64,000 bases of DNA. Origin: Hormiphora californensis. Taxonomy: Eukaryota; Animalia; Ctenophora. The position numbers and the translations under genes were made by a program. The first letter of the stretch is position 1; every line of letters begins with the position of its first letter. Under the pieces are notes generated by a model. The model was not told where the DNA came from. It ran no database searches and saw only the letters and a program-made list of their open reading frames with translations. Location: assembly GCA_020137815.1 (NCBI GenBank), contig CM035356.1, forward strand, positions 1,240,001 to 1,304,000, given 5' to 3'. Shown here piece by piece: positions 1,507-38,790 of the stretch.

Positions 1507-4500
1507 TAAGGCCATTTGCCAAAGAGTTTATTGGGTCTCGTGGCTGTCGTCTGTTCACAATTGTGAGTAATGGACTGATGGCCTAACATGTATTGTTTGA
1601 TGGCATATATAATTTCACTCTACCCGAGAGATTTATCTTCAATCTCTATTTTCTCCCCTAACGAAGCTGTCAGTAAAACTTCGAGGAGAGAAATATAAAT
1701 CGTGTTTAAGCAATATGTCAAATATATAGGAGCTTATAATGAGGCCGGCCTCATCTCCTTGAAGAGAGGGATTGCTCCTCAAAAAGCACATTAACTTAAT
1801 AACTAGTTTTTATCCGTTTTCAATTCCTAGTGGTTTTAATAAAATAGCTTACTTATAATTGCTACTTTAATAGCTCTTCTGCTAGGCTATGCTTGGTGTA
1901 CTTAGATTGCAAAACCTCCACCAACTGGTTATGCTTAACAAGAATAACTGCATTATGTTTCATAATGCTATGTTTCCCCGCCAACCTTTATTTTGATAAC
2001 CATCTAATGTGAAGGCGGGACAGACATTTCCGATCATTTATGAATCACTCAAACCGTATACAGTATAGAACAAATCTTTGTGTTTTAGTAAAATTAAATT
2101 GAGCGGCTCACATCTCCTGAAAACGTGCCATTGAAGTATTTGATGAAGGAGCAACACCGTTGTCCCTCGCAACTAATTGGGTTACGTCACGGGACAAAAA
2201 AGCGTGACACTTCACTAGTATGTAAAATTGTCGAATTCTAAACCCCTATGCCTTTTTACAAAAGGCATCCGGGTGAATACCTTCGGCATTCACCGGGCGG
2301 GGAAAAATATTTATATATTTCTGCAGCGGTTTAGAACGGAATAATTTTCCTCAAATAATTTATTCTCTCCCCCATGTAGCCAATAGGTCATGAGAAGAGG
2401 CGATCTGATCGCCGAACCAAATGTCAGACCAATCCACAGATCCCGATAATGGTACGTCCCCCACCCTCCCCCATTATAAACACATTGAACCCTTGAACCT
2501 TTTTACCAGTAACACTTTATCTAGCCATGACTTGTACTTTTAACCCATAAAATATGCCGGTAAGTTTGTGCTCTCTTGCATGCTTTTCTATAATTCCTTC
2601 GTGATTATCTTGACACACACCCAATCACATAATAAACATATTTCTTTCTGTTGTGATTATTATGATGCTCCTTTTCTCTCTCATCATGCATAATTTGTAG
2701 TTCAAATGAAGGCTGCAAAGCTGCAAGTGACAAATTAATCCTTTGTGTGTGAAGCAATTTGACCTCGTTCAATAATATATTGAGAATATCTTCGTGTCTA
2801 ATGAATAGCTTCAAAACCGTTGTGTATAGATCTTGCCAGTGAACTGTTCTCTCCTGCACTATTATACACCTTCTGTAACCACCCTAATCTAATCTAATCC
2901 TTGTACCCCAGGAACGGATCCAATTTTAATTACAGCAGTTGTCTTTGCGGGTTGCTCTTTGGTCATCATCGTAGGTTGGCCATGTGCTGGAAATCAGCGC
3001 TGTCCCCCCCAAAAAAAACACACGATAAAACAGTAAAGTACATGATAATTATAATTTTTGAGATGTTTATGAGTTACGACGGGGTAAGGGGTTACGACTG
3101 AAGCTGACAATACCCCCGTAATAGAGAGCTCTAGAACAGTCTCTATAGAGATTAGAGGCATTACTTTTATGAAAGACAGTTACATGATCCACTCTCTTGT
3201 GATGCCTTTTAACATCTATCCCGATTCCCGCATAACGTCATTTTTCAATCGCAAATTTAACCTCTCTTTATGAACTTTTTAAATTCCCTGATAATAGCTG
3301 TCATCTTTTTTAAATGGAAGCAATAAACCAATCAAACCAGGGTCACGAACAAATATGAAGTGTTACGCACAATTAATATGTTTCGTGCGCTTTGAAACTG
3401 GATTATAATTTATCGTGTATTAATTATCTGTGAGGAGTTAAAAAGGGAGATGAATGACAGGTCCGCACTCGGTGTGTCTTACTATCAGTTATCGCCATGT
3501 AAGGAGCTTTAAGTGAGCCTGACATTGATGAGACTGTCATGTGCCTTGATCCCTGATTTAGTTCAGTTCAGTTCAAGAATTTGTGAAAACACAGGATACA
3601 TTAAAATAATAAGCCTCCTAAAAACACACGGTCAGCTCAGCGAACATAAAATCACACAAGAATGTTACGAGCACCACTCCAATATTGAGTTGCTGTTGGC
3701 TTGAGCAGGGTAACCGTGACAGGGGGTGTGTCAGGAAAAGTGGAGAGAAAACTACCCAACGAGATTTGAACTGGTGAAGAGTTGAAGCCTCTTTTACAGT
3801 TCGTGGAAGAATATTCCACAACCTAGACTAGTACCGCAAATGACTGTTCATACAATGAAAGGTTAGATCGTTGGGCTTCATATGAATAACGCGGGACGAT
3901 AGCTCTTGGGCAGAGCGGTGCGTATCAGCGAAGGTCATAGCAGTATGTTAGGTATCTCGTTGTTATACACTTTCCAAACAAGGATGGCAGTGTACCTTTC
4001 CCGACGGCGTTGAAGTGACAAAAGTCCCAAAGTTGAAGACGTTGCCAGTAATCCAACCCCTTGAGACCAGCAATCTTGCGAGTGTAGGATCGCTGGATCT
4101 CCTCAAAACGACTGATATCCCCGATTTTAGTAGGTGACCACAGTGTGCAGCAGTAGCTCATGGGGACGCACTAGTGACTTGTAAAGAGTCATCATGGTGC
4201 GGCGAGTTCTGGATCTGAAGGCACTTGTGTCCATCCAGCAACCCGACTAGCCGTGGAGACTACACGAGATATTTGGGCCGACCATTGCCCATCACTCGAG
4301 AGTACAACACCTAAATCACGCACAGTGTCGAAGGTCGATGAACTCCATCAGAGAGTTGATAGGAATAGTTCTCAGCACTGAACGGTAGTTCTCTGAGAGA
4401 ATTGGTTTGATTCAGCGTATAGTTCATGACCTCGAACTTGGACTGGTGCAAGACATGTTTTGTAGCTTCCGCCCCGGTTATCACACTGTATAGATCCTTT

Positions 4501-7500
4501 GTAGGTTCAGTTTGTCAACCATAGTCCGGTAGCAGAGAATATTTTGGTGTCATCAGCGAACGACAGTGAAGAACCGTGTTGATTACGGATTCCAAGTCAA
4601 TTACGTAGATCAAAAATAGTAGTGGGCCGAGCACAGTACCTTGTGGGACACCGCTTCTGACCTCTGCAAGGAAGATGATGTGCCGTCGACTAAAACCGTT
4701 TGTTTCCGGTCTAGCAAGAAGCTGCGGATCCATTCAAGGAGTTTGCCCTTAACTCCATCTTCTGCAGTTTTTCGAGTAGCACACCGATGTCAACTTTATC
4801 AAACGCCTTCTCGAAGTCCAAGTAGATTACATCCACTTCAAGAAGGTCGTTGAGATTGTTCAGAATATTGTCAATGTGACGAGTGAGTTGGGATAAGCAG
4901 CTCTCTTGCTTCTAAACCCATGCTGAGACTCGTTGAACAAATTCTTGATTCAAAGTATGACACCATTTGAGATCTTACAACCCTTTCAAAGTCTGGCAAT
5001 GTGGTGGTTAGTGAGATCGGGCGGTAGTTTTCAGCTTTCATTTTAGGACCCTTTTGTAAAGTGGCGCAATGTACTGAAGTTTCAGACAGGGTGGTACAAT
5101 ACCAGAATCAAACGATTTGGCCCATAAGATGGATAGGGGGTAGGACAGCGATGATCGGCAGTCACGCAGAATTCGGCAGGTATATCTCCTGGGGGGCGGC
5201 TGATAAGGATTGAGTTCATACAGTGCCTTTTCAATATCGGTGGCGGAGAATACGATGTCTGAGAGGCTGCATGTAGAAGGAGTAATGTTGTTGCAGCTGC
5301 TGAAGGGGAGTTTGAAGGAGGTGTGTGTGTGTGTGTTGTTTTGCACCGCCCGTCATTCCTCCCACTTTACTGCCCCACAATGGTCGGCAGACAACCTATA
5401 TTAATATCACTCTTCGCCACGTCCCCCACACGTAGGGATAATGTGTGATGGTTCGGTTTGGGTCCTGGTATTTTGTTGAGCAAGCTCAACATTTCCCTCG
5501 AACCTTCGCCGGCATCACAGAAGAGCCTTTGATACAGTGAATCTAATATTAGACTGACATACCTATGTTGTCAGGACAATGGATGGAATTTACCTGTCTC
5601 ACAGACTGGTCTTTGGTTACTACTGCTCCAGGGAGCTGTAGAGGTAGGTGGGTTGGGATATGACAATACCGTGGGTTCACCATCTAATCGGTGACGGCTG
5701 AAATATCTTATCACACCTCAGGTCTTTGGTCAAAACCGCTAGCAGTACTTATCAGCATGCAACCTGGGGGTCCGGACAGTAATTTCTTAGGAACACAGAT
5801 AAGCATGAAAAACGCTTATGTAAAATTTGGTGAGCATTTGGCAAATTATCAGCTCCCAGGGGTTGCAATTGCGGGGTAATTACTTGCCAACGGCGGAGGT
5901 GGCCCTTTGTTATGGCCCAGAACTGCCCTACCTTAATATTGGGACCCTTATGATGTGGTTTTGTGGAATTCCCCGGCCGTAGCGATTCTTGCCTGTGTAT
6001 GTACTTCTTTCAGATCGGGATGGTTGGGGATGGTTTATTCGAATAGGTTACTTCTGTATACTAATTTGGAGAATTTGTGCAGATCCAGTGTGTTGCTGGG
6101 AGTGAGAATGTTGTTGATGATATTGGTAGTCGAGTTTGTATCGTAGCTCATCTAGGTCTGGGCAGTGGAGGAGCTGTGGTTCCGCATTCTTTGACTTTGC
6201 AAAGTCACAGAGGTTGGATATGGATTTGTTTGTTTGAGATGGCGCTGTTTAGGTTGTTTTGTCGGAGATTGCCCGGGTTAGACTTCTGAGGTATGGTTTT
6301 TGAGAGAAGTTTAGTTTGGGGTGGTCTCTGATGAGTTGTTAGAGCAGCGTGGTTGTCCAGTTGGAGTAATGGCCTTCTCGATTTGTTTTATGAATTTCTT
6401 TGTGCAGTCTTCTTTCATTAGCGATATGAGTTGGGTTTTGGTTAGGCCGAAGGGGTTTGCGGTGTTAAGACTGTCTTTGGTTGCTCTTTTGGCGATTAGG
6501 TCCGCGGCCTCGTTACCGGGGATGTTGGAGTGGGCTTTAACCTTTGAATTGTTACATTGTTGTAGATTTGTAGTTTATGGAGGTTGTTGATTGTGGAAAT
6601 TAACTGGTTCGGTTTGTCTGTCCCTTCACAAGATTAGTTAGGTGGGTTTGGAATCTGTATGTATGGTAATGTTCATGTACTTGGTGCATAACTCAGTAAA
6701 TTGATGGCTACCATATTTATTGCTTGAAGTTCAGCTTGGTTGATTGTGTTGATTGGGGAAAGAGTTTGGATTATAATTTTGTACGAGGTATCGTACAATA
6801 TTATGGCTCCGGCACCGTGACTGGGCGGGTTGGTGTCCATTTTTGAACCGTCAGTATATATTTCGATATTTCCGTTTGTGAATATTTGGTTTTTCGGAGA
6901 AATGGATAAGTTGGGTGGAAGTAATGTCCAGGTCTGAACCCGGGTTTAGGTGGCGCAAGTAGTTTTCTATGTCTTTGGAGGGGGTGAGTTGGCTCTTGTA
7001 CCGTGGTTTGGGTCTGACCACCAGTTGTTGTTGCTAATGAGGTGGAGTAGTTGTTAATTCTTTCTTTGTTTAAGAGAAAGACAAGAGGCTTACACCGGCG
7101 AGCTTAGTCAGTGTTGCTGACTGAGTATGTTTATGGCCGCCTGTGATCTTACGGTTGACGGCGTTTTGGACCGTTTGCATCTTTTGGAGTGCGGTTTGGT
7201 TATTCAGGATCGTGTGACCCCAGATACCGCCTGCGTATAATAGATTTGGATAATATCTGGTTGTGGACGTGTCTGGCTTGGTCCAGGGTTAGCCCCCAAT
7301 GTTTGTGATGAGGAAGTTTAAGGGGCGGGCAGCTGCCTTGGTTTTAGTAATTTTTTGTTGTGTGCGTTTTGTAATTTAGATTTTGTCTAGGTCGACGCTA
7401 GATAGGGGGCAAATGGTTTTATGGGGAGTTGTTCGTTGCCCAGTTGGATGTGTTTAGAGAGATTTTTTGGTGTGGTGTTGTGGAAAGCAACTAAGTTAGT

Positions 7501-8263
7501 TTTTGTGGGTACTTAGTTTTAGGCCTTGTTTGTGTACCCATTCTGTTAAGATTTTCATTTGTTCGACAATTATGTCGTGCATGGTGACGTTAAGGTCGGG
7601 GCCAGTAATAATTATAACAATGTCATCCGCGTATAGTATGATAAGGTTGAGGTCGCAGCAGGTGAATTGGATTGTGTTCATGCATAAGTTCCAGAGGAGT
7701 GGAGATAGGATACCCCCTTGGGGGGTGCCTCTGTGGATTTGTTGCTCTAGCCATTCCCCACCTAATTCAAGGATTACAGTTCTATTTCTGAGGGAGTGAC
7801 TGATCCATTCGAATAGTTCAGTTGGTAATTTTATCTTATCTAAACCTCGCTCTAGCGCAGTGAAAGATACTCTGTCGAAGGCGCCTTCGACGTCTACGAA
7901 AGCCCCGAGGCGTATTGTTTGTCAGCGAGCGCGTTTCTATCCTGCTAGTAAGATCGTGATCGCGGGATATGGTTGATTTACCTTACGGAAACCATGTTGG
8001 TTGTCGATTAGTTTCATGTTAATTTTGAGGTCGTCGGGAGAAAGATTAGTAGACCTCTTTCCATGAGTTTGAGAATGTTTGACGACAACAGATGATGCGG
8101 TAACTCTTGGGGTAGTGTAATTGACTTACCTGGTTTTGGATGATGACGCCCTTGCTCTTCAGCCAAGTTCCGGTTTCAACCTGCAGGTGAGGGTGTTAGC
8201 ATGAAGAGGCGTAATTTATGGGAGATATGTCCCATGTATCGATTAACATGCCGTACTGATCTT
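1507..8263. repeat. Degraded tandem copy of 8325-15152 (unique flank, CR1-like RT segment, and 3' half of the inner LINE)
   Basis: Both copies start TAAGGCCATTTGCCAAA and run colinearly to CCG(T)TACTGATCTT. This copy carries many 1-2 nt indels that break every ORF, and a ~60-nt unrelated junction lies at 8264-8324. Confidence 0.92.
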
Positions 8264-9715
8264 CTCACTACGGCCAGGGGGATGTGAGTGGGTGATACAA
8301 AGCCCCGGTTCCTTTGCAGTCAGTTAAGGCCATTTGCCAAAAGAGGTATTGGTCTCGTGGCGTCGTCTGTTCACAATTGTGAGTAATGGACTGATGCCCT
8401 AACATGTATTGTTTGATGGCATATATAATTTCACTCTACCCGAGAGATTTATCTTCAATCTCTATTTTCTCCCCTAACGAAGCTGTCAGTAAAACTTCGA
8501 GGAGAGAAAATATAATCGTGTTTAAGCAATATGTCAAATATTAGGAGCTTATAATGAGGCCGGCCTCATCTCCTTGAAGAGAGGGATTCTCCTCAAAAAG
8601 CACATTAACTTAATAACTAGTTTTTATCCGTTTTCAATTCCTATGGTTTAATAAAATAGCTTACTTATAATTGCTACTTTAATAGCTCTTCTGCTAGGCT
8701 ATGCTTGGTGTACTTAGATTGCAAAACCTCCACCAACTGGTTAGGCTTAACAAGAATACTGCATTATGTTTCATAATGCTATGTTTCCCCGCCAACCTTT
8801 ATTTTGATAACCATCTAATGTGAAGGCGGGACAGACATTCCGATCATTTATGAATCACTCAAACCGTATACAGTATAGAACAAATCTTTGTGTTTTAGTA
8901 AAATTAAATTGAGCGGCTCACATCTCCTGAAAACGTGCCATTGAAGTATTTGATGAAGGAGCAACACCGTTGTCCCTCGCAACTAATTGGGTTACGTCAC
9001 GGGACAAAAAAGCGTGACACTTCACTAGTATGTAAAATTGTCGAATTCTAAACCCCTATCCTTTTACAAAAGGCATCCGGGTGAATACCTTCGGCATTCA
9101 CCGGGCGGGAAAAATATTTATATATTTCTGCAGCGGTTTAGAACGGAATAATTTTCCTCAAATAATTTATTCTCTCCCCCATGTAGCCAATAGGTCATGA
9201 GAGAGGCGATCTGATCGCCGAACCAAATGTCAGACCAATCCACAGATCCCGATAATGGTACGTCCCCCACCCTCCCCATTATAAACACATTGAACCCTTG
9301 AACCTTTTTACCAGTAACACTTTATCTAGCCATGACTTGTACTTTTAACCATAAAATATGCCGGTAAGTTTGTGCTCTCTTGCATGCTTTTCTATAATTC
9401 CTTCGTGATTATCTTGACACACACCCAATCACATAATAAACATATTTCTTTCTGTTGTGATTATTATGATGCTCCTTTTCTCTCTCATCATGCATAATTT
9501 GTAGTTCAAATGAAGGCTGCAAAGCTGCAAGTGACAAATTAATCCTTTGTGTGTGAAGCAATTTGACCTCGTTCAATAAATATTGAGAAATATCTTCGTG
9601 TCTAATGATATAGCTCTCAAACCGTTGTGTATAGTATCTTCCAGTGAACTTTCTCTCCCTGCATTTATACACCTCTGTAACCCCCCTAATCTATCTAATC
9701 CCTTGTTACCCTCAG

Positions 9716-9827
9716 GAACGGATCCAATTATAATTACAGCAGTTGTCTTTGCGGTTGTTCTCTTTGTCATCATCGTACTGTTGGCCATGTGCTGGAAATT
9801 CAGGAGCAAAAAACACCACGATAAAAA
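9716..9827 (+). CDS. Transmembrane exon of a single-pass membrane protein (degraded copy near 2912-3033)
   Basis: Acceptor CCCTCAG| and donor |GTAAGT flank (G)TDPIIITAVVFAVVLFVIIVLLAMCWKFRSKKHHDK, a hydrophobic helix followed by basic stop-transfer residues. Confidence 0.65.
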
Positions 9828-10356
9828 GTAAGTCATTGAATAATTATATTTTGAGATGTTTTATGAGTTACGACGGGGTAAGGGGTTACGACTGACAGCT
9901 GACAATACCCCCGTAATAGAGAGCTCTAGAACAGTCTCTATAGAGATTAGAGGCATTACTTTTATGAAATGACAGTTACATGATCCACTCTCTTTGTGAT
10001 GCCTTTTAACATCTATCCCGATTCCCGCATAACGTCATTTTTCAATCGCAAATTTAACCTCTCTTTATGAACTTTTTAAATTCCCTGATAATAGCTGTCA
10101 TCTTTTTTAAATGGAAGCAATAAACCAATCAAACCAGGGTCACGAACAAATATGAAGTGTTACGCACAATTAATATGTTTCGTGCGCTTTGAAACTGGAT
10201 TATAATTTATCGTGTATTAATTATCTGTGAGGAGTTAAAAAGGGAGATGAATGACAGGTCCGCACTCGGTGTGTCTTACTATCAGTTATCGCCATGTAAG
10301 GAGCTTTAAGTGAGCCTGACATTGATGAGACTGTCATGTGCCTTGATCCCTGATTT

Positions 10357-12157
10357 AGTTCAGTTCAGTTCAAGAATTTGTGAAAACACAGGATACATTA
10401 AAATAATAAGCCTCCTAAACACACGGTCAGCTCAGCGAACATAAAATCACACAAGAATGTTACGAGCACCACTCCAATATTGAGTTGCTGTTGGCTTGAG
10501 CAGGGTAACCGCTGACAGGGGGTGTGTCAGGAAAAGTGGAGAGAAAACTACCCAACTGAGATTTGAACTGGTGAAGAGTTGAAGCCTCTTTTACAGTTCG
10601 TGAAGAATATTCCACAACCTAGCACCTAGTACCGCAAATGACTGTTCATACAATGAAAGGTTAGATCGTTGGGCTTCATATGAATAACGCGGGACGATAG
10701 CTCTTGGGCCAGAGCGGTGCGTATCAGCGAAGGTCATAGCAGTACTGTTAGGTATCTCGTTGTTATACACTTTCCAAACAAGGATGGCAGTGTACCTTTC
10801 CGACGGCGTTGAAGTGACAAAAGTCCCAAAGTCTGAAGCGTTGCCAGTAATCCAACCCCTTGAGACCAGCAATCTTGCGAGTGTAGGATCGTCCCCGCCC
10901 TGACGCTGGATCTCCTCAACACGACTGATATCCCCGATTTTAGTAGGTGACCACAGTGTGCAGCAGTAGTCTAGATGGGGACGCACTAGTGACTTGTAAA
11001 GAGTCATCATGGTGCGGCGAGTTCTGGATCTGAAGGCACTTAGTGTCCATCCAGCAACCCGACTAGCCGTGGAGACTACACGAGATATTTGGGCCGACCA
11101 TTGCCCATCACTCGAGAGTACAACACCTAAATCACGCACAGTGTCTGAAGGGTCGATGAACCTTCCATCAGAGAGTTGATAGGAATAGTTCTCAGCACTG
11201 AACGGTAGTTCTCTGAGAGAATTGGTTTGATTCAGCGTATAGTTCATGACCTCGAACTTGGACTGGTGCAAGGACATGTTGTTAGCTTCCGCCCAGGTTA
11301 TCACACTGTATAGATCCTTTTGTAGGTTCAGTTTGTCAACCATAGTCCGGATAGCAGAGAATATTTTGGTGTCATCAGCGAACGACAGTGAAGAACCGTG
11401 TTTGATTACGGATTCCAAGTCAATTACGTAGATCAAAAATAGTAGTGGGCCGAGCACAGTACCTTGTGGGACACCGCTTCTGACCTCTGCAAAGGAAGAT
11501 GATGTGCCGTCGACTAAAACCGTTTGTTTCCGGTCTAGCAAGAAGCTGCGGATCCATTCAAGGAGTTTGCCCTTAACTCCATATCTCTGCAGTTTTTCGA
11601 GTAGCACACCGATGTCAACTTTATCAAACGCCTTCTCGAAGTCCAAGTAGATTACATCCACTTCAAGAAGGTCGTTGAGATTGTTCAGAATATTGTCAAT
11701 GTGACGAGTGAGTTGGGATAAGCAGCTCCTCTTGCTTCTAAACCCATGCTGAGACTCGTTGAACAAATTCTCTGATTCAAAGTATGACACCATTTGAGAT
11801 CTTACAACCCTTTCAAAAGTCTTGGCAATGTGGCTGGTTAGTGAGATCGGGCGGTAGTTTTCAGCTTTCATTTTAGGACCCTTTTTGTAAAGTGGCGCAA
11901 TGTACTGAAGTTTCAGACAGGGTGGTACAATACCAGAATCAAACGATTTGGCCCATAAGATGGATAGGGGGTAGGACAGCGATGATCGGCAGTCACGCAG
12001 AATTCTGGCAGGTATATCTCCTGGTGGGCCGGCTGAATAAGGATTGAGTTCATACAGTGCCTTTTCAATATCGGTGGCGGAGAATACGATGTCTGAGAGG
12101 CTGCATGTAGAAGGAGTAATGTTGTCTGCAGCTGCTGAAGGGGAGTTTGAAGGAGTG
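10357..12157 (-). mobile_element. 3' part of a CR1/L2-group LINE (reverse transcriptase and 3' end)
   Basis: ORF 10591-11871 has NYRPISLTS, YLDFEKAFDKV, GVPQGTVLGPLLF and FADDTK. A (TGAAC)3 tail lies at 10357-10371. A 14-nt insertion near 10892, absent from the duplicate copy, shifts the frame. Confidence 0.93.
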
Positions 12158-12884
12158 TGTGTGTGTGTGTGTGTTTTGCACCGCCCGTCATTCCTCCCAC
12201 TTTACTGCCCCACAATGGTCGGCAGACAACCTATATTAATATCACTCTTCGCCACCGTCCCCCACACGTAGGGATAATGTTGATGTTGTTCCGGTTTGGG
12301 TCCTGGTATTTTGTTGAGCAAGCTCAACATTTCCCTCGAACCTTCGCCGGCATCACAAGAAGAGCCTTTGATACAGTGAATCTAATATTAGACTGACATA
12401 CCTATGTTGTCAGGACAATGGATGGAATTTACCTGTCTCACAGACTGGTCTTTGGTTACTACTGCTCCAGGGAGCTGTAGAGGTAGGTGGGTTGCCGGAT
12501 ATGACAATACCGTGGGTTCACCATCTAATCGGTGACGGCTGAAATATCTTATCACACCTCAGGTCTTTGGTCAAAACCGCTAGCAGTACTTATCAGCATG
12601 CAACCTGGGGGTCCGGACAGCTAATTTCTTAGCAAGCACAGATAAGCATGAAAAACGCTTATGTAAACTTCTGGTGAGCATTTGGCAAATTATCAGCTCC
12701 CAGGGGTTGCACTATTGCGGGGTAATTACTTGCCATACGGCGGAGGTGGCCCTTTGTTATGGCCCAGAACTGCCCTACCTTAATATTGGGACCCTTATGA
12801 TGTGGTTTTGTGGAATTCCCCGGCCGTAGCGATTCTTGCCCTGTGGTATGCTACTTCTTTCAGATCGGGATGGTTGGGGATGGT

Positions 12885-15800
12885 TTATTCGAATAGGTTA
12901 CTTCTGTATACTAATTTGGAGAATTTGTGCAGATCCAGTGTGTTGCTGGGAGTGAGAATGTTGTTGATGATATCTTGGTAGTCGAGTTTGTATCGTAGCT
13001 CATCTAGGTCTGGGCAGTGGAGGAGCTTGTGTTCCGCATTCTCTTTGACTTTGCATAAGTCACAGAGGTTGGATATGGATTTGTCTTTGTTTGAGATGGC
13101 GCTGTTTAGGTTGTTTTGTCCGGAGATTGCCAGGGTTAGACTTCTGAGGTATGGTTTTTGAGAGAAGTTTAGTTTGGGGTGGTCTCTGATGAGTTTGTAG
13201 AGCAGCGTGGTTGTCCAGTTGGAGTAATTGGCCTTCTCGATTTGTTTTATGAATTTCTTTGTGCAGTCTTCTTTCATTAGCGATATGAGTTGGGTTTTGG
13301 TTAGGCCGAAGGGGTTTGCGGTGTTAAGACTGTCTTTGGTTGCTCTTTTGGCGATTAGGTCCGCGGCCTCGTTACCGGGGATGTTGGAGTGGGCTTTAAC
13401 CTTCTGAATTGTTACATTGTTGTAGATTTGTAGTTTATGGAGGTTGTTGATTGTGGAAATTAACTGGTTCGAGTTTGTCTGTCCCTTCACAAGATTAGTT
13501 AGGGTGGTTTTGGAATCTGTATGTATGGTAATGTTCATGTACTTGGTGTCATAACTCAGTAAATTGATGGCTACCATATTTATTGCTTGAAGTTCAGCTT
13601 GGTTGATTGTGTTGATTGGGGAAAGAGTTTGGATTATAATTTTGTACGAGGTATCGTACAATATTATGGCTCCGGCACCCGTGACTGGGCCCGGCTTGGT
13701 GTCCATTTTTGAACCGTCAGTATATATTTCGATATTTCCGTTTGTGACTATATTTTGGTTTTCGGAGAAATGGATAAGTTGGGTGGAAGTAATGTCCAGT
13801 TCTGAACCCGGGTTTAGGTGGCGCAAGTAGTTTTCTATGTCTTTGGAGTGGGTGAGTCTGGCTCTTGTACCGTGGTTTGGGTCTGACCACCAGTTGTTGT
13901 TGCTAATGAGGTGGATGTAGTTGTTAATTCTTTCTTTGTTTAAGAGAAAGACAAGAGGCTCTACACCGGCGAGCTTAGTCAGTGTTGCTGACTGAGTATG
14001 TTTATGGCCGCCTGTGATCTTACGGTTGACGGCGTTTTGGACCGTTTGTATCTTTTGGAGTGCGGTTTGGTTATTCAGGATCGTGTGTCCCCAGATACCG
14101 CCTGCGTATAGTAGATTTGGCATAATTATCTGGTTGTGGACGTGTCTGGCTTGGTCCAGGGTTAGCCCCCAATGTTTGTTGATGAGGAAGTTTAAGGGGC
14201 GGGCAGCTGCCTTGGTTTTAGTAATTTTTTTGTTGATGTGCGTTTTGTAATTTAGATTTTTGTCTAGGTCGACGCCTAGATAGGGGGCAAATGGTTTTAT
14301 GGGGAGTTGTTCGTTGCCCAGTTGGATGTTGTTTAGAGAGATTTTTTGGTGTGTGTTGTGGAAAGCAACTATGTTAGTTTTTGTGGTACTTAGTTTTAGG
14401 CCTTGTTTGTGTACCCATTCTGTCAAGATTTTCATTTGTTCGACAATTATGTCGTGCATGGTGACGTTAAGGTCGGGGCCAGTAATAATTATAACAATGT
14501 CATCCGCGTATAATATGATAAGGTTGAGGTCGCAGCAGGTGAATTGGATTGTGTTCATGCATAAGTTCCAGAGGAGTGGAGATAGGATACCCCCTTGGGG
14601 GGTGCCTCTGTGGATTTGTTGCTCTAGCATTTCTCCGCCTAATTCGAGGATTACAGTTCTATTTCTGAGGGAGTGACTGATCCATTCGAATATTTCAGTT
14701 GGTAATTTTATCTTATCTAAACCTCGCTCTAGCGCAGTGAAAGATACTCTGTCGAAGGCGCCTTCGACGTCTACGAAAGCCCCTAGGGCGTATTGTTTGT
14801 CAGCGAGCGCGTTTTCTATTCTGCTAGTAAGATCGTGAATCGCGGATATGGTTGATTTACCTTTACGGAAACCATGTTGGTTGTCGATTAGTTTCATGTT
14901 AATTTTGAGGTCGTCGTGGAGAAAGATTAGTAGACCTCTTTCCATGAGTTTGAGAATGTTTGACGACAAACAGATGATGCGGTAACTCTTGGGGTTAGCG
15001 TAATTTGACTTACCTGGTTTTGGGATGATGATGCCCTTGCTCTTCAGCCATAGTTCCGGTTTCAACCTGCAGGTTAGGGTGTTAAGCATGAATAGGCGTA
15101 ACTTATGGGAGATTATGTCCCATGTATCGATTAACATGCCGTTACTGATCTTATCTAGGCCAGGGGCTTTGGCCCTTTTTACCTGTTTTATGGCTTTGTT
15201 GAGGTGGCTGATTTTCAGTTGTTCGGTAACCGGCATATTGATTTTATTCTTCTGTTTCCATGTCTGGTTAGATTCATCGGGATTCTCTGGGAAGTGAGTG
15301 TTAGCGATGGTTTTGAGAATGGTTAGTGGGTCGTCCGAAGATGCTTGGGGGCCCGTGTCGATTTTTGTGAGGTTTATACGGGGTTTTGAGTGGTTTTTCA
15401 TGCACTGTGAGACTTCCTTGATTGAAGTAAGTTTTGAGATTTTTTCTTTCCAGCGTTGTTCTTCACAGTTTTTGATTTCCTCACCAAGGGCTTTTTTGAG
15501 TCTGCTAATTTCTGATCGGGTTTCCCCCGACTTGCTCTTTTGTTTCTTTAGAGGTTTTAGTTCTTGTTTGATAGCTGTCGCAGTCGGGGACCAGGGCGAC
15601 GATTTTAGGTGTTTTACTACTGTGGTCGGGGTGGCTTCGTTGAAGGAGGAGGTTAGTGCTTCACATATAGACTTGTATTGACTGTTCATGGCCTTTTTGC
15701 TCGGGTTGTTGTGGATGTTTAACTTACTGAATTTTTGAGTTACTAGTTCCCTAAAGAGGGGCATGTCTGTATTTTTGGGTAATTTAACCTTCTCTGTTTC

Positions 15801-16952
15801 TATGTTGCCAAGATTAATTTTGATGTGTATTCTTTTGTGGTCTGATAGGGTCGTGTCAGTGAGGGACCACTTGTGTACTCTGTCATGCGCTTTTTCATTA
15901 GTTATGGTCAGGTCGATGAGAGATTGGCCATTTTTACTCACGAAGGTGGGTTCGTAAGTTGTATTTTCGATATAAAGCCGTTCTTCATCGAGTATACTTT
16001 CCAGAGTGATACCTCTGACGTTGGTGATTCTATCTCCCCATGATTTGTTACGGGCGTTTGAGTCGGTACATATTATCCAGGCTGTGTTCTTTTCTTGGAC
16101 ATAGCTGCTAGTTTGTAGGAGTTTGGTCTCTGTGTCGGGATTGATATGTTTTTGCCCTTTTGGGGCAGAGAGATAGGCCGAGGTGATTACTATAGATTTG
16201 TTATTGCCAAATTTGTATCTGATGCTGACTATTTCGTCGTTTGAAAGGGTTGCTAGAAGGTGTGCGTTTTTGGCCATGTTTATAGGGACAATAATACAGG
16301 CACGGGGGGTTACGTGGTCCTTGGTAAAACAACGGGAATATTTTGGGACGAATTGGACTCTGCCGTTCTTACCTGTATAAGGCTCTTGGAGGGCTAGTAT
16401 TTTGTTGTTACCGGTCTTGGACATGATTTCCTTTGTTGCTCCAATTTCAGTATGTAGGTTGTGCTGTATTATCTCTGTGAGGAAATTAGAGGGGTTAACC
16501 TTCTTGTTTTCCTTTGGGTGTTTGTGGGGGGCGTTGACAACTTTGGGGGCCGGTATTATGGCTGGGTTGTTGGCAGGGGAGTTAACATTATCTGTGGGAC
16601 CATTTGTAACTGAGTTACTGGCGGGGGTGCTAACGAAATTGTTATTTGGAGCTGGGTTACCGGCGGGGGTACTGTGGTTAGCGGGGGTGCCGTGTGTAAC
16701 TGGGTTACTGGCGGGGGTGCTATAGTTAGCGGGGGTGTCATGTGTAACTGGGTTACTGACGGGGGTGCTATAGTTAGCGGGGGTGCCATGTGTAACTGGG
16801 TTACTGGCGGGGGTGCTATAGTTAGCGGGGGTGCCATGTGTAACTAGGTTACTGGCGGGGGTGCTATTGCTAGCGGGGGTGACTTGTGTGGTGTAGTCAG
16901 GGTTAGGATGGCGTTTGTAGCGTTTCCGGTGTCTTCCAGCTGGCGGGGACAT
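12885..16952 (-). CDS. ORF2 of the inner LINE: APE endonuclease, RT, RNase H and C-terminal CCHC knuckle (1355 aa, uninterrupted)
   Basis: APE motifs LQEPY, DSNA, IDLT, SDH. RT motifs DVEGAFD, GTPQGGILSP, YADD. RNase H motifs YTDGSK, AEL, TDS, VKAHSNIPGNEAAD. C-terminal CDLC…EH…C. Confidence 0.96.
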   Translation of the reverse strand: MSPPAGRHRKRYKRHPNPDYTTQVTPASNSTPASNLVTHGTPANYSTPASNPVTHGTPANYSTPVSNPVTHDTPANYSTPASNPVTHGTPANHSTPAGNPAPNNNFVSTPASNSVTNGPTDNVNSPANNPAIIPAPKVVNAPHKHPKENKKVNPSNFLTEIIQHNLHTEIGATKEIMSKTGNNKILALQEPYTGKNGRVQFVPKYSRCFTKDHVTPRACIIVPINMAKNAHLLATLSNDEIVSIRYKFGNNKSIVITSAYLSAPKGQKHINPDTETKLLQTSSYVQEKNTAWIICTDSNARNKSWGDRITNVRGITLESILDEERLYIENTTYEPTFVSKNGQSLIDLTITNEKAHDRVHKWSLTDTTLSDHKRIHIKINLGNIETEKVKLPKNTDMPLFRELVTQKFSKLNIHNNPSKKAMNSQYKSICEALTSSFNEATPTTVVKHLKSSPWSPTATAIKQELKPLKKQKSKSGETRSEISRLKKALGEEIKNCEEQRWKEKISKLTSIKEVSQCMKNHSKPRINLTKIDTGPQASSDDPLTILKTIANTHFPENPDESNQTWKQKNKINMPVTEQLKISHLNKAIKQVKRAKAPGLDKISNGMLIDTWDIISHKLRLFMLNTLTCRLKPELWLKSKGIIIPKPGKSNYANPKSYRIICLSSNILKLMERGLLIFLHDDLKINMKLIDNQHGFRKGKSTISAIHDLTSRIENALADKQYALGAFVDVEGAFDRVSFTALERGLDKIKLPTEIFEWISHSLRNRTVILELGGEMLEQQIHRGTPQGGILSPLLWNLCMNTIQFTCCDLNLIILYADDIVIIITGPDLNVTMHDIIVEQMKILTEWVHKQGLKLSTTKTNIVAFHNTHQKISLNNIQLGNEQLPIKPFAPYLGVDLDKNLNYKTHINKKITKTKAAARPLNFLINKHWGLTLDQARHVHNQIIMPNLLYAGGIWGHTILNNQTALQKIQTVQNAVNRKITGGHKHTQSATLTKLAGVEPLVFLLNKERINNYIHLISNNNWWSDPNHGTRARLTHSKDIENYLRHLNPGSELDITSTQLIHFSENQNIVTNGNIEIYTDGSKMDTKPGPVTGAGAIILYDTSYKIIIQTLSPINTINQAELQAINMVAINLLSYDTKYMNITIHTDSKTTLTNLVKGQTNSNQLISTINNLHKLQIYNNVTIQKVKAHSNIPGNEAADLIAKRATKDSLNTANPFGLTKTQLISLMKEDCTKKFIKQIEKANYSNWTTTLLYKLIRDHPKLNFSQKPYLRSLTLAISGQNNLNSAISNKDKSISNLCDLCKVKENAEHKLLHCPDLDELRYKLDYQDIINNILTPSNTLDLHKFSKLVYRSNLFE
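16600..16885 (-). repeat. 48-bp coding tandem repeat (TPASNPVTHGTPANYS, about 5 copies) in the ORF2 N-terminus
   Basis: Visible in both the DNA and the translation. Confidence 0.9.
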
Positions 16953-17377
16953 GGCTATAGGTTAGGAGGATTTGAGTTGATTATTTTGGGGGTGGTGTTA
17001 GCTGTGTTAAAAAGGTTACCAACTGTTGGCGAGGGGAGCAAGATTTAACAAGCAAGATTTACGATTGTGGGCGGGGGTAGATAAGAGAATCAAGAAAAAT
17101 CCCATTGCTTTGATTTAGTACAAATAGTTTAGAAGATTACGAGTATTGAAGTCATTAGCTTGTATGGTTTATCTTTCAGACTGAATGTACACAACATAGC
17201 ATGTTTTTAAAAAAAGGAAAGGTCAGCATGTGAAAAGACACGTTACAGCGGTGGTGTTAACTAAAAGCAGCTGCAGCCACACAAAAACACGCATTTCCCT
17301 TGACAAATTGTCTAGTATGTAGATGGGGGCGGTACTGGTTTTGATTGGTGGCACCCGACCTTTGTTCTACTATGAGG

Positions 17378-18303
17378 CTAGCTAGTTACTACCATAGCCG
17401 CTTCAGTCGTTTTCTTGAAGTGTTCTACTTCATATGGCTTCAGTGTGTGGAAGGCCCACAGTTTGGGCTCCAAACCCAACGGAAAAGTGGCCTTTTCCGG
17501 CAACTCGATGAAAATCTGTACCCCCAGTTTAGTGCGCTTAGGGGGCATGAGAGGGGAGCACGCTGCATTTTTACCTGCCACATGGACCTTGTTTAGTGTT
17601 AGCCCTTTTATTACAGTTTCCACAAGCTCTTTCGTGACGAGTAGGTTTGAGCTGGTGTTGGGGGGCAAAGTGACCCGCAGGTAGTCGGCGTGGTTTTCAA
17701 TTCTGTTAGAGGGGGCAATTTAGGGTGTGCTGCGGCATAAGGTTAAATGAATTAGGCGGGCTAGGGAGATAGCAGAAAATGGCGGGCTGAGCAGATGAAA
17801 TATATCTAAATATATAGTTGTATCTACTGTGTGGGGTAGGGATTGAGTTACCTTGGTATGTATTTGAGTTCACGAGGGACTCTTTCCGGGATTAGGTTTT
17901 CTTTCCCGCGTACAAATATGGCCCTGTTCGCTGGAGATCGATGCAGAGTGATGCCAAGTTCAGCGCATAATCAATGGCAACATCGCCATTTCATAGCTCT
18001 CAAAATCCTTGTTCTCAAGCTGTAGGAAATCTCTATGAAAGAGAACACCACCATCCATTTGAGCCGTCTTCCTGAAGGGTAAGGGGGTCGTGTTAGGAGA
18101 GTGTAGAGTGGTAGAGTATTTGTAAAAGTTATATACTATGGAGATTTGAGGGGGGGGGGTGTAAATGTGGTTACTGCTTACCTCTCTGTTGCCTTGGCCT
18201 TTTTTCTGGCCTGTTCTATCGGGGAGAGGGTGTCGGGGGATCTGCTACGCTTCTTCCCTCTCTTTGCTGGTTGTTTTCCCTTAGTGCTGGAGGGTTTTGC
18301 CAT
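17378..18303 (-). CDS. Putative three-exon ORF1 of the inner LINE (exons 18303-18182, 18071-17852, 17702-17378)
   Basis: Donors AG|GTAAGC and AG|GTAACT; acceptors CTAAC…CCCTTCAG| and CCCTCTAACAG|. Both introns are phase 2 and all junctions are in frame. Exon 2 is 220 nt and needs one base removed near 17965 (error or mutation). The N-terminus is Lys/Arg-rich. Confidence 0.7.
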
Positions 18304-18784
18304 GGCTAGTTGGGGGGTAAGGAATGTTAGAAGGTGTGACGTCAGGGTCTCTTTGTAGATAAGGGGGCCTGAGCGCGCGCAGGCGTGCTGCGTAAAGAGT
18401 TTGCTTTCCATGAGCTCGGGTTTTTTCTTCTCGCGCGCTACACGGGATAGGAGTATATTACATCATCGTCCTGTGGGGGAATTGTTTTTGTTATGGGTGG
18501 GGATGTAATGTGTTATCAAGGTGCTGATTTATTGGACATCAGTAGCCGTATAATGTAAGTAGACTTAGTGACTGGGGCCCAAACTAATGGGCACCGTTCA
18601 CTTAATCTAGTTTTATGTTATAGGGGGCCCCATTCCCGCTGCTCACGCAACGAGGCAGGGGAGACCCTAAGTTCATTGAGCTATTACAGTCGAGACTGGA
18701 ATAGCTCACGGTGCCATGAGTGAGGTCGGCTAGATCTCTGGCGGGTTTTTACTCCCCAAAATCGGGGCGATAGCCGGGCGTCCG

Positions 18785-18968
18785 TAGTCATTAGCCGCAC
18801 TCCCGAGGCGCTCCGGCGACGACTCGGCAAGCCGAGATCGTCCCCAGCACACCCCCGGAGCACGTTCCCAGGATGGACCGCGGGGAGGTTGACTAATCGG
18901 ACTTGCAGCGGTGTGGCACCAGAAGGAGCGAAGCTCCAACTGGCATCACACCACTACCATTCCATCCC
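18785..18968 (-). ncRNA. HDV-like self-cleaving ribozyme at the 5' end of the inner LINE
   Basis: Minus strand: P1 GGGAUGG/CCAUCCU (G1·U wobble), P2 UAGUCA/UGACUA, P3 ACC/GGU, L3 UCCCCGC, P1.1 GG, long P4 (CGUGCUCC…GGAGUGCG), and J4/2 GCUAA with the catalytic C at 18794. G1 abuts the TSD. Confidence 0.92.
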
Positions 18969-21000
18969 AGTTTGAAGGAGTGCTGAAGACAGAGGTAAAT
19001 TGTGATTGAAATAGTTCTGCCTTCATCTCGGGAACGTCCGTAAGTGACCCATCACTCAATTGTAAGGGAGGGATGCGTGACCGGGTCTTCCTCTTTCGGT
19101 TGGCGTACGACCAAAAGAATTTAGGGTTGGCTTTTAGTTTCATCAACGCTTCGTTTTCATCAAAATCGAGTCGCTGAGAAATGTGACACAAGATGGCCCA
19201 AGTAATTCTGGAAACACCAACCTCGAGCTGTGGCAAAAGGTGAGGTTTATTCTGCCGGGCTAGAGTAATCCGTTTGTTCAAACTCCGTTGTTTCACTTTC
19301 AGTTTCCTGAGAATAGGGTCCCTTCGTTTTTTACGGGCCTTCTTCATACGAGAGTGGTGGGATAAAACCTGTAAACAGTCAGGATAAAAAGCTGGACAAA
19401 ATCAGAACCGTCGCTGCTCTCGCAAATGTCGGCAAGTGCTACCCAGTCGATCGTGTCCAATTCCTTACACATTTCAGGGAAATCTGCCTCATGAAAGTCA
19501 TAAATATCAAAGTCCGTAAATTGATGGTCCAATTGACGACGAGGTTTGATTCCGAAACCAAGGGTAGAGCTGATCATATGGTGATCGGAAATACATGACT
19601 CTGATACCTCAGTTTTGAAGACATATTCGGGCCGGTTAGTGAGAATAAGGTCCAGAATATTCAAGCCCCTTGTAGGGGCATCAACAAGTTGAGTTAGGAA
19701 ATAATCGTTCACAAATTTTATGAACATCTGGGAACAAGTGTCAGATCCTCCACTGAGTGTTCCCCAGTCAATGTCCGGCATATTGAAATCACCCATAATG
19801 TAGATATCAGGACAACCCTTGTTAAGTTCACACTGATCAATGAAATGGGATAGATCATCAAAAAGTCCATTTGATGGGGAAGATGGCGCCCTGTAAACAA
19901 CACAAAAAACCGAGTGGGTCTCTTTGATGTAAACGGCAGCCGCACTATTGGAAGTGTCAGAGAATCTGAATTCGGAGGAAGGGGTCAGTTGGTTGTTAAT
20001 GTAGAGTGCACAGCCACCACCTCTCCTCCCTGCTCTATCACAAACGAATCAGGTGAAACCCTTCAATTTCCAATTGTGCATCAGAGAAATCATCACGCCA
20101 CCAAGTCTCCGTTATGCCGGTGCAAAGGATGGTTTTGACGGATTCTCCAATGAGTCCTTGATAAAAGAAAACTTCCACCGACAGTCACTAGCCGCGGAAG
20201 GCGTTACTAACTGCGGGCGTTGATGAGGAGTAATTCCGAAACCGTTCCCAGAACCCCATGGTAGTTGGTCGGGGTGTTCAGGCTCGGTTGGCCTGAGTGT
20301 GAGATGTTTGGGCCGGGGTGTGTGTTCCCTCGTCATCTCTTCCCTGAAGGACTGGAGAGATGATTCAGGGACGTCTTCACTTCTCGAAGAATCTCGTCCC
20401 TCACTGAGGCCATCAATGCCATGAGAAAATCCTCTTGTGAACGGATGTCATTGGTCGCGACACGGGGGTGGGTCTCAGTTTTAATGGTCTTCTTCTTCTT
20501 TTTCTTCTTAGGGTTTTGAGGAGCTGGAGCTGAGCGAGGGGGCTCTTTCTGCTCCACTTTCTGAGAGGCATCACTGGTTTTGTTACCAGTACTCTTCAAT
20601 GAATTACCTTAGTAGGGGGGTACTTCACTTCTCCGAGTGTTCTTTAAATGTGTGTCTTTACATTCTTTGTCGGTACAGACTCGGGAGATCTCAGAATTAT
20701 GGCAGAGAGGTGGGTGAAAATTCTGACACTTATCACCAAAGTTACACCCGAACGAGTTGCCGTTCCGTACTGACAATAACGGAGGCATTTCTGGGGATGT
20801 TCCTTGCTGCAAGGCTTACCACTAATCAACTTGTCACCATTTGGGCCATGAGGACAGTCTCTCAGTAGATAACGTTCACAAACATTGCTGAATTTGGGAA
20901 CACCTTGCTGTTTCACCTCTCCATAAAAGAAGCTCAAGATCCAATCTTTTGAATGTCACTCTCCCAACAGGAGTTCCAACAAGAATCTTCTTGACAGGGC
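18969..21000 (-). mobile_element. 5' part of the host CR1/L2-group LINE (APE endonuclease and Cys/His-rich ORF1), frameshifted; 5' end unresolved
   Basis: Fragments GITETW…RGGGCALYI, GDFNMPDIDW, LDLILTN, ISDHHMI and KANPKFFWSY. CCCH-like fingers (CERYLLRDCPHG…CSKEHP) at 20600-20900. Confidence 0.88.
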
Positions 21001-33297: not shown

Positions 33298-36200
33298 TCT
33301 CTCTATCACCCTCTCTCATTTCCAGGAGGAGTTCCTAAGGCAGCAGGAAGAAGCTGAACGTGAGGCAGACAGGAAAGAAGAGGAGCGGCTGGAGAAGTTG
33401 CGCATTGAAGAGGAACGAAAACAGAGAAAGAAGGAGAAGGAAAAGGAACGAAAGGAGAGAAAGAAGAAAGAGGGAACATGGCTGACAAAGGCAGAAAAGG
33501 AACGACGAGAGAGGGACCAAGCAGCACTAGAAGCAATGCGGCAGCAGGGAATTAAAGTGAGTGCTCAAATTCCTTCAAGCAATGCCACCTGTTACAACAC
33601 CCCTGTCTCAATAGGTGCCTGATAAGGATGGAGAGAAGAAGCCCGCTGGTAAGGTGCGATACGGTGCCCGACAGAGAAAGAAGAAACCGCAACCTCAGGT
33701 ACGTAACGCGCGATGACCATCTTACGGTGGGAGGTGGCTCGTTCGAAAGTTTTAAAGCGTGTGCTGCGCGCATTTCTCCTTGCATCATCTCACAAATCAG
33801 AGAGAATGTGAGACAGAGACACAGAGAGAGTGATTGATCAGTGACAAGTGTCACACCGCAACAGGAGATGGTTGAGTGAACCAGAGAGAGAGGTTACATA
33901 ATCACACACATACAGTATATACCACAATCATGGAACACAAAAAGCACTTGGCGCGCCCTAAAAAGTAGAACGCGGGAACTTTCAAACCCCTCGACCACGC
34001 CCATTTTCGATCCCAATCCCCCCATTTTGATCCCAATTCTCCTCATTTCAGGAGGAACAGATAATCGAGGCGATGAATGACAAATCTCCCTCTGCCGCTG
34101 CTGTAGCTGCTGTACCCTCGACCCCAGAGGACCCTACAGCCGAGACCTGGGAATTGTTAGATACCCCCAAGGTGGTGGTGGAGCCATCCAGTGTGGCTGA
34201 CAATTGGGACGAGAGTGAGGAAGAGAGTGGTGCTGTTCCGGAGAAGGAAGATGAGGCCCCCATGGTAGGTAGAGGGGCAGGGAAACAGTTAATTTTGTTG
34301 GGATGTCTGTTTGGATGCACTCCAATCAGAAGAAGTAAAAACGGTGCATAAAAATATGGTGCATGGTTCATTTCATAACACACAAATATAATTTCAGTCT
34401 GACCCGGTCCTTGTTGATGAAGATGGAGAGATAGAAGAGGAAGAAGAGGAAGAAGAAGAAGATGAGGAGTCTGAATCTGAGGACGAAGAAGATGAAGATG
34501 ATAGTGAAGATGAAGAGAGCGAGAGTGATGAAGAGGATCTGCCCTGTAAGAGAGAGGTTGGAGGTTAGGAAGGAGAAAGCTGATAAGAACAAGGATCCCA
34601 ATGTGTTGAGGGCACCCATCTTGTGTGTTCTTGGTCATGTGGACACCGGTAAAACGACCATTTTGGATAAGCTGAGGAAAACCAACGTTCAGGTAATGTT
34701 ATGTAGGAGTGTCACTATTTGAGGCAGATTCTAGTGGGAAGATGTTTGATGTAAACGACTCCTATCTCTGTTGTCATACACTGACTGTACATCGCGCAAC
34801 CTCACGTAGCCGCACCGGGTCGAAGGCCCGGTGCGAAGAGAAGGGTCTTATATGAGACAATATCTCTGTACTAAAACATATTATAATGATCCCACTATCT
34901 CCCACTAATGGTCCAGCACTAACACTGTACTATACTCTCCCTATCCTACTAACACCATCCCACTGTTACAGGAGGGAGAGGCAGGTGGTATAACTCAGCA
35001 GATTGGTGCTACCAATGTCCCCATTGAGAACATTATCAGGGAGTGCTCCCATCTCTCCATGCCAGAACTAAAGATACCTGGCATGCTGATCATCGATACA
35101 CCTGGCCACGAGTCTTTCAGGTATGATTCAGAAGTGTACGGAGATAATGAGAGATATGTATTGAGAGCTGTGTGGATTGTTATGGGATGTATGCTCTATA
35201 AAAGTAACCAAAGTGTTGTTGTTGATTGAAGATTGGAACGTTTCACAACCTTTCTCTTCACAGTAACCTGTTACCTTTATGTGACAATGCCATCCTGCTT
35301 GAGGATAACTAACACCCCATCCCACTAACACTATCTCACCTCACCCAGTAACCTGAGGTCCCGGGGAAGTTCTCTATGTGATATGGCCATCCTTGTTGTG
35401 GATATAATGCACGGGTTGGAACAGCAGACGATAGAGAGCATTAACCTACTGAAGAAGAGAAGAACACCCTTTATTATCGCCCTCAACAAGGTAAGCTAAG
35501 ATGTCACCAAGATAATAGTTTTTTTCTTCATTAGAGCGGTCCTTGATCCTTCTCTCAGTATCCAATGTTGCCATTGACCATCTCACCTTGATCTGCCGAA
35601 TCCTCGATGTATAACGTTATTCTCATCCCCTTACCTCAGATTGATCGTCTGTACGAGTGGAAGATTATGAACAAGACCCCTGTAGAGGAGGCTATTAAGA
35701 AACAGAAGAAGATAACACGAGACGAGTTCAGTGATAGGGCAAACCAGGCCATGTTGCAGATAGCTGAGCAGGGTCTGAACGCTAAGCTCTTCTACGAAAA
35801 CCCCGATGTTAGGACCTATATTAGCGTTGTACCTGTTTCTGGAATCTCAGGTATGCATTATCTGACTGATGATGATGATTATATGACTAGCAGTCATATA
35901 ATCATCTGCCCCCTCTGTTTTAAATCTAAAGTGTTGGATCTTGTTTCCTGGTTCTTGGCCATTTCCATTCTATTCGGTCCCTAACTTTCAACCTAATCAC
36001 TCCCACTCCCCTTGCCTTGCTCGACATTTTCTTGTAAAGGAGGGTTAGAGCATTGAAATTTACAATCAACCCCCTATTATACCCTCTTTGCAGGTGACGG
36101 TATGGCTGATCTGCTGTGTTTGGCATGTGAGCTATCCCAGAGAATGCTGGGTCCCCAACTAATCTACAAAGATGTCCTGGAGGCCATGGTACTTGAAGTA

Positions 36201-38397: not shown

Positions 38398-38624
38398 TTT
38401 TTTACTCTCCCCTGGGGTTCTTTTTAACTGTATGTTTGTCTCGCACAGACAGCATGTGGTAAGGGTACGATATATATTTGAGCTAGGTTACAATGAGCGT
38501 GTGGGAGAGATCATAGGTCATTGTAGGGCGATTTTTTTGTCACTGTTTGCTTTCTTGTTTCCTATCCAAACAAATCAATTGTCTTTGAATTTGTCGTAAA
38601 ATCCTCGATGATGAAACTAACAGC

Positions 38625-38740
38625 ACGCGCAAATATATTTTATTTGCGCGGCCGCGGCATAATTTTATGAACTAACGCCGCGCGCGCGAGAAATAAAAGT
38701 GAATTTTTATTTTTTTCAGCAACTTTCGCTGCACTTTTTT
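38625..38740 (+). promoter_or_regulatory. Putative promoter (CGCG clusters with T tracts)
   Basis: CGCG-rich patch between the eIF5B end and the first FARSA exon. Confidence 0.5.
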
Positions 38741-38790
38741 TCGTTACGAAGGTGTTTTCGTTACCTTCTGAGCCCTTTATCTCCCGAAAT

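Follow-up and report, generated by a model that had tools for sequence, protein, structure and literature searches.

How can a retrotransposon whose first gene appears to be interrupted by introns, and whose RNA appears to be cut free by a ribozyme of its own, provide both the RNA that is copied into the genome and the messengers for its two proteins? The question is raised by a full-length long interspersed nuclear element (LINE) of 6,811 nt located on the minus strand, from 18968 to 12158, of a 64,000-nucleotide stretch of the genome of the ctenophore Hormiphora californensis (contig CM035356.1; this whole stretch is referred to as the window, and its numbering is used throughout). The answer proposed here, with confidence somewhat short of even, is that of a LINE freed by its ribozyme, with an unspliced template, that would need host splicing for its proteins, i.e., the removal of two cis introns and the likely addition of a trans-spliced leader.

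Concerning the limits of the element, it is directly flanked by a 14-bp target site duplication (TSD; 18982–18969 and 12157–12144) that occurs exactly twice in the window, and it displays the combination expected of a LINE of the AP endonuclease (APE) type, namely a TSD and a 3′ repeat tail, (AC)8A, with no long terminal repeats (LTRs). This agrees with a previous, sequence-only reading of the locus, which had described a TSD-bounded element with a (CA)n tail. The insertion interrupts, in the same orientation, an older LINE, presumably CR1/L2-like, whose endonuclease (19344–20048) and reverse transcriptase (RT; 10591–12150) lie one on each side. When the element and one TSD copy were deleted in silico, the open frame of the older LINE was rejoined without a stop. 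A second copy at 5322–8280 was rejected as not independent, as it is contained in a 6.8-kb tandem duplicate that carries the same 3′ junction: window positions 1507–8280 repeat 8325–15166 with 96.6% identity and 135 gap openings, mostly small indels, and end within the second open reading frame (ORF2). Given the common insertion site and the many indels, one copy of the element was counted in the window, and the duplicate is probably an assembly artefact in the form of an unpolished read segment.

The 5′ end was searched for a ribozyme of the hepatitis delta virus (HDV) type with a descriptor of our own construction. The single match in the window starts at 18968, the base that directly follows the TSD, while 60 simulated windows gave none. 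The match contains the nested double pseudoknot formed by P1, P2, P3, P1.1 and P4, with the conserved L3 and the C of J4/2, plus a long J1/2 hairpin and a long P4. In Rfam no family matched at the gathering threshold and, by E-value, there were two chance-level matches, both to other families; the long J1/2 and P4 insertions may explain this miss. A relaxed descriptor, run on 80 metagenome loci (315,174 bases), gave one match, near the 5′ end of the related element L003, and none across 15 rounds of simulated loci. In L003, three of the seven P1 pairs are altered on both sides and yet still pair, P2 is different, and the P3, L3 and J4/2 motifs of the window ribozyme are retained. The position of the fold at base 1, together with the compensatory changes in L003, is good evidence for a genuine HDV-type fold, and bears out the ribozyme that had been proposed at the first base of the element. 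The predicted ribozyme would, with high probability, cleave the RNA before G1, and the insertion boundary coincides with this predicted site. Since the copy begins there and holds both introns of the first gene, the RNA from which it was made had most likely been cut by the ribozyme and left unspliced, as the sequence-only reading had supposed.

The first gene (ORF1) was analyzed by comparison with homologs and by the scoring of splice signals. Read without splicing, ORF1 hits a stop after 41 codons, and an in-frame stop arises when intron 1 is retained. With exon 3 as the query, a search of 1.84 billion representative proteins yielded three matches, of which one was a repeat protein and two were true homologs (P0161 and P0162). 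The sole named one, P0162, is a protein of Pleurobrachia bachei. Its residues 1–18 align to the 5′ half of exon 2 in one frame (61% identity, 18 aa), residues 18–57 to the 3′ half in another frame (75%, 40 aa), and the similarity extends over exon 3 (62% over 100 aa). P0162 is unbroken across both the frameshift in exon 2 and the intron 2 junction, and it is at this junction that the tblastn pieces end and begin. The similarity to P0161 (70%, from an 861-bp contig) stops right upstream of the same junction, which is, indirectly, as expected were there an intron also in that gene. On this comparison, intron 2 is a real GT-AG-ended insertion at a conserved coding junction, and it would very probably be spliced.

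No homolog spans intron 1, and its assignment comes from signals and frame. The splice model was trained on 15 host introns of two genes, whose joined exons yield an eIF5B-like frame without stops and a PheRS that agrees with P0024 at 489 of 495 residues (a contig of run X1 also bridges one of these introns), and it was applied to 381 AG sites. The acceptor of intron 1 ranked first in both scoring models tried, the G content of the intron is 5% versus 25% in exon 1 (21/259 in the two introns versus 157/667 in the exons, p 2e-8), and the donors of both introns score 9.3–9.4, with a host range of 4.9–10.9. The removal of intron 1 brings a basic N-terminus into frame. These signals make its splicing probable; alternatively, an ATG near the beginning of exon 2 could serve as the start codon of ORF1. 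The GT-AG ends of the two canonical introns claimed beforehand are at the places indicated for them, but splicing alone does not leave an open ORF1, as the frame with both introns removed stops at codon 78. Relative to P0162, exon 2 carries 4 extra bases near 17968–17965; with X at the frameshift, ORF1 amounts to about 221 residues. In Atlas this protein reached only ferredoxin-like families, all below 0.9, and AlphaFold models of P0162 (pLDDT 35 and 41) were unusable. Homologous ORF1 loci were absent from the metagenome, viral and genome contigs searched, as were homologs from the 1585 peptides of the 80 metagenome loci, and no additional homologous protein of 86–277 aa was found.

ORF2 is intact, as had been claimed of an APE-RT-RNase H frame, with Pfam matches to Exo_endo_phos_2 (PF14529), RVT_1 (PF00078) and RNase_H (PF00075, residues 1073–1205). 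The C-terminal C-x2-C...H...C motif is retained in four aligned ORF2 proteins, and a 160-aa N-terminal extension contains 48-nt repeats (16554–16889, minus strand); the corresponding extensions of the relatives, about 15 to 240 aa long, cannot be aligned. In a quick tree of 75 rows, from which a length filter removed the RT of the flanking LINE, the RT of the element shared one starred clade (99) of 9 rows with L003 and with P0004, a protein of the moth Leguminivora that carries DUF4780. The tree groups the element with a DUF4780-bearing protein among rows that include no named LOA reference element, and R1/LOA is the name that we assume for this RNase H-bearing group. ORF2 relatives were absent from the viral contigs searched, and the genome contigs provided five, all distant. 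L003 (69–6112) is an apparently full-length relative, with an ORF2 29% identical to that of the window and a minimal HDV-like fold of 62 nt. Its ORF1 is a single open frame of 511 aa without introns, the middle of which scores as DUF4780 in Atlas (0.91); its spacer between both ORFs is short and holds a donor-like site common to the relative L002.

How the two proteins would be made depends on the sequences that precede their start codons. In Hormiphora, no fewer than 56% of the Iso-Seq reads have a leader, and ctenophore mRNAs are widely trans-spliced (PMC8527503). In the window, the host start codons at 39213 and 41181 are preceded by an AG acceptor at 2 and 0 nt, respectively, and in the element TAG/CC-ATG precedes both ORF1 and ORF2. 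The acceptor at 18306, before ORF1, ranked 13 of 381 in the first model and second after scoring CAG and TAG alike, while that at 16955, before ORF2, went from outside the top 20 to rank 8. When the 86 ATGs were ranked by the acceptor located 0–6 nt upstream, those of ORF1 and ORF2 came in first and third place. In L003, the ATG of ORF1 was second of 58, with the acceptor 5 nt before ORF1. Upstream of ORF1 there is no donor scoring above 5.4 in the window or above 4.7 in L003, to be compared with the host range given above, and there are 11 ATGs in the window and 2 in L003. The spacer between ORF1 and ORF2 contains no AATAAA-type hexamer. These data can fairly be taken to suggest an outron before ORF1, and one before ORF2 is plausible but weaker; the addition of a leader at 18306 seems a little better than an even prospect, while at 16955 it falls rather below one. 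Of the branch point and TAG/CC-ATG acceptor claimed before both ORFs, then, the sequences are present, but the branch spacing before ORF2 is short and the motif is not outstanding. The label of host operon given to the element by the sequence-only reading is not established, operons being unreported in ctenophores as of 2021 (PMC7986045). Run X1, which bears the same species label, did not cover the element and matched the host genes only below 90%, so that it says nothing on expression either way.

The mechanism that we favour tentatively can be described as follows. The predicted HDV-type ribozyme at the first base would free the RNA of the element from a read-through transcript, and this RNA would be copied into the genome unspliced. 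The ORF1 protein would require cis splicing by the host, and a host leader would be the likeliest source of a cap, more surely for ORF1 than for ORF2. The region between the ribozyme and ORF1 would act as an outron, such that the leader would replace the uncapped 5′-OH end and the 11 upstream ATGs, and the ORF2 protein would capture the unspliced RNA in trans. A broader version, in which a LINE lineage would behave as a small host-style operon, with an uncapped RNA that keeps its introns, separate leader-capped mRNAs for ORF1 and ORF2, introns throughout the family and mobilisation in trans, is doubtful on the sequences at hand.

Several observations weigh against this mechanism. The main difficulty is that LINE proteins usually act on the RNA that encodes them (cis preference), so that a leader-started ORF2 mRNA would yield copies devoid of ribozyme and ORF1. 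The 4-nt insertion in exon 2 means that ORF1 is broken in this copy, and the uninterrupted ORF1 of L003 means that not every member of the clade has introns. The comparison of the split gene with the middle of L003 ORF1 was borderline, since the score was reached by 51 of 1000 shuffles with P0162, 52 with exon 3 and 462 with P0161. Concerning the splice signals, the acceptor of intron 2 scores weakly (rank 66 of 381), and six donors located in ORF2, the 3′ untranslated region or exon 3 outscore both intron donors; with an acceptor backed by homology at rank 66, and stronger donors elsewhere, it can be said that motif scores discriminate poorly. The ranks of the acceptors before the ORFs were shifted by a change of model made after the first run, and are thus model-dependent. 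The sense strand is G-poor and rich in similar acceptor-like sites, so the motif by itself is unremarkable, and a GCC in front of the ATG makes a favourable Kozak context as well, which partly explains an acceptor-like sequence there. The CTAAC before ORF2 is only 9 nt from the AG end, versus 16–30 nt in the 15 host introns, and in L002, L003 and L004 no acceptor stands right before the ORF2 ATG (not in the top 6).

The last two points, together with the end of unspliced ORF1 after 41 codons, lend themselves to an alternative in which the introns are real and ORF2 has no leader. The unspliced, ribozyme-cut RNA would be both template and ORF2 message, with ORF2 started by cap-independent or internal initiation and acting in cis, and only ORF1 would come from spliced RNA. 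Introns would then be kept by ordinary cis preference, and the difficulty of capture in trans would be avoided. The HDV-like ribozymes of R2 and L1Tc have indeed been proposed to support cap-independent translation (PMC6765202). However, the ORF2 ATG is 2 kb from the ribozyme, behind the 11 ATGs of the leader region, those of ORF1 and 6 more in the spacer, and it is in third place among 86 for an upstream acceptor; we consider this alternative unlikely.

A different possibility is that the segment at 17.0–18.7 kb is a captured host gene, or a fragment of one, that brought its introns and its own acceptor, took the place of the normal ORF1 in a single copy or subfamily and has since begun to decay. 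The split gene is frameshifted while ORF2 is intact, the one homolog with a name comes from a P. bachei protein entry, and the sizes and signals of the introns fit the host. Moreover, the split gene gave no Pfam match, and hhalign against the ORF1 of the relatives was not significant (probability <1%). On the other hand, a conserved host gene at 60–70% identity would be expected more widely than in two true homologs among 1.84 billion representatives, none of them named from Mnemiopsis, although the PheRS of this genus was found. No repeats resembling the ends of a second insertion were seen. The split gene occupies the position of the DUF4780-like ORF1 of L003, both start with a basic stretch, and both are preceded by an acceptor. 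It is because of this position that the split gene was taken as the ORF1 of the family; it is reasonably likely to be the element's own ORF1, a diverged RNA-binding protein of the DUF4780/RRM type, and its capture from the host seems quite unlikely.

An internal polymerase II promoter 3′ of the ribozyme, giving capped RNA for ORF1 (and ORF2) and reducing the acceptors to chance or to 5′ untranslated cis introns, is very improbable: GC-rich words located 70–135 nt ahead of the ATG of ORF1 are similar to words that precede the host PheRS gene, the strand abounds in acceptor-like sites and a weak donor at 17019 (5.5) could form a 65-nt cis intron ending at 16955, but the shared 17-mer (15/17) is at chance level, being equalled in 35 of 40 simulated untranslated regions, and no donor upstream of ORF1 exceeds 5.4.

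Table 1. Features of the LINE and of its insertion site, in window numbering; pairing segments of the ribozyme are separated by a slash.
Feature	Position	Strand	Basis
5′ TSD copy, 14 bp	18969..18982	-	empty site restores frame of flanking LINE
HDV-like ribozyme fold	18780..18968	-	descriptor; covariation with L003
Ribozyme P1 (first pair G-U)	18968-18962/18876-18870	-	
Ribozyme P2	18902-18890/18790-18780	-	
Ribozyme P3-L3-P3	18889-18877	-	
Ribozyme J4/2	18795-18791	-	
5′ untranslated or outron-like region (11 ATGs upstream of ORF1, counted from base 1)	18304..18779	-	
Hairpin; second acceptor-like site; in-frame upstream ATG	18707-18678; 18471; 18411	-	
Branch-point-like CTAAC and TAG acceptor, 2 nt before ORF1 ATG	18306..18330	-	acceptor ranks
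ORF1 exon 1, basic N-terminus, 40 codons + 2 nt	18182..18303	-	no covering homolog
ORF1 intron 1, GT-AG, 110 nt, predicted	18072..18181	-	signals and frame
ORF1 exon 2, with 4-nt frameshift near 17968-17965	17852..18071	-	homolog comparison
ORF1 intron 2, GT-AG, 149 nt	17703..17851	-	P0162 continuous across junction
ORF1 exon 3	17378..17702	-	70% to P0161, 62% to P0162
425-nt spacer ending in TAG acceptor-like site at 16955	16953..17377	-	acceptor rank
ORF2, 1355 aa, intact	12885..16952	-	AP endonuclease, RT, RNase H, C-terminal CCHC-like motif
3′ untranslated region	12175..12884	-	sequence
(AC)n tail, (AC)8A, 17 nt	12158..12174	-	sequence
3′ TSD copy	12144..12157	-	second occurrence of the 14-bp sequence
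Older LINE halves (APE, RT) split by the element	10591-12150 and 18985-20048	-	

Some candidate links between both ORFs were also considered. A fusion of ORF1 to ORF2 through 16955 from either intron donor was excluded by phase. A strong donor in exon 3 (17574) and an acceptor-like site at 16475 are in the same phase, and an ORF1-APE fusion is possible on paper. The site at 16475, which lies at the start of the APE domain (also in L002), may follow from codon use and was not counted as evidence. Neither was a match of 5 of 6 residues that links the N-terminus of P0001 to the frame preceding the ATG of ORF2 (reached by 40 of 200000 shuffles), which was noticed post hoc and may reflect the repeat of the N-terminal extension.

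Elsewhere in the window, three host genes, eIF5B-like, PheRS alpha and a HEAT-repeat gene, are tightly packed at 34052–43149 (plus strand), with gaps of about 450 and 236 nt. The ATG of the HEAT gene comes directly after an acceptor AG, 236 nt past the preceding stop, in an operon-like arrangement. PheRS alpha shares 77% identity with a cluster that includes a protein of Mnemiopsis leidyi, and about 60% with named proteins of other animal phyla. An upstream exon (38791–39212, plus strand) matches the N-terminal part by which P0149, a Mnemiopsis protein, is longer, and an acceptor is found 2 nt before the internal ATG where the 495-aa P0024 starts; two isoforms, produced by cis or leader splicing, are possible. 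Single frameshifts occur in two of these housekeeping-type genes, eIF5B-like (near 34540) and HEAT (near 42230), which indicates that the assembly probably has indel errors. A foldback-like DNA element at 43948–47709 has inverted arms of 1132 nt, 99% complementary, around an array of 32-nt repeats.

Compared with known systems, the window element is, as far as its sequence tells, an unusual variant of an HDV-bearing LINE, in which the ribozyme and one intron are well supported and the operon-like mechanism is a prediction. HDV-like ribozymes at the 5′ end are known in L1Tc of Trypanosoma cruzi, R2, baggins and RTE elements, where they likewise occupy the extreme 5′ end and free the element from a co-transcript; L1Tc also resembles the window element in having APE, RT and RNase H and a TSD of about 12 bp (PMC6765202). 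The difference is that, in the passages of that source on such LINEs, no coding introns are described, and translation is ascribed to a role of the ribozyme resembling an internal ribosome entry site, whereas the first gene of the window element is split, and its start codon comes 665 nt into the element, after 11 other ATGs. With the R1/LOA group the element shares an APE-RT-RNase H-CCHC ORF2, P0004 as the nearest named protein and L003 as a relative with a DUF4780-like ORF1, but its ORF2 is only 28% identical and its ORF1 is short (about 221 aa) and split by introns. Both ORFs are separated by 425 nt, while they overlap in L004 and L006.

Intron retention is called highly unusual, and typical of Penelope-like elements, in PMC8557442. 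In those elements, too, introns survive retrotransposition and self-cleaving ribozymes are present, and they can move intron-containing host genes, but they have another RT class, a GIY-YIG endonuclease, hammerhead ribozymes and pseudo-LTRs (PMC8557442), whereas the window element belongs to the APE-type LINEs and has a TSD and a repeat tail. The likeness to ctenophore leader trans-splicing is that an acceptor-like site precedes the start codon while no good donor lies upstream; two host genes of the window show this arrangement as well. Full-text searches, run largely on literature outside subscription journals, uncovered no LINE whose coding introns are canonical or whose ORFs are resolved by a leader. 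The absence of introns is regarded as a feature intrinsic to retroelements, among them L1, and as a cue by which HUSH tells them from host genes (PMC8770142). If the favoured mechanism is true, a LINE family with coding introns would mean that target-primed reverse transcription can select unspliced RNA, and leader trans-splicing would explain, in hosts that practise it, both the translation of an uncapped, ribozyme-cut RNA and the access to ORF2.

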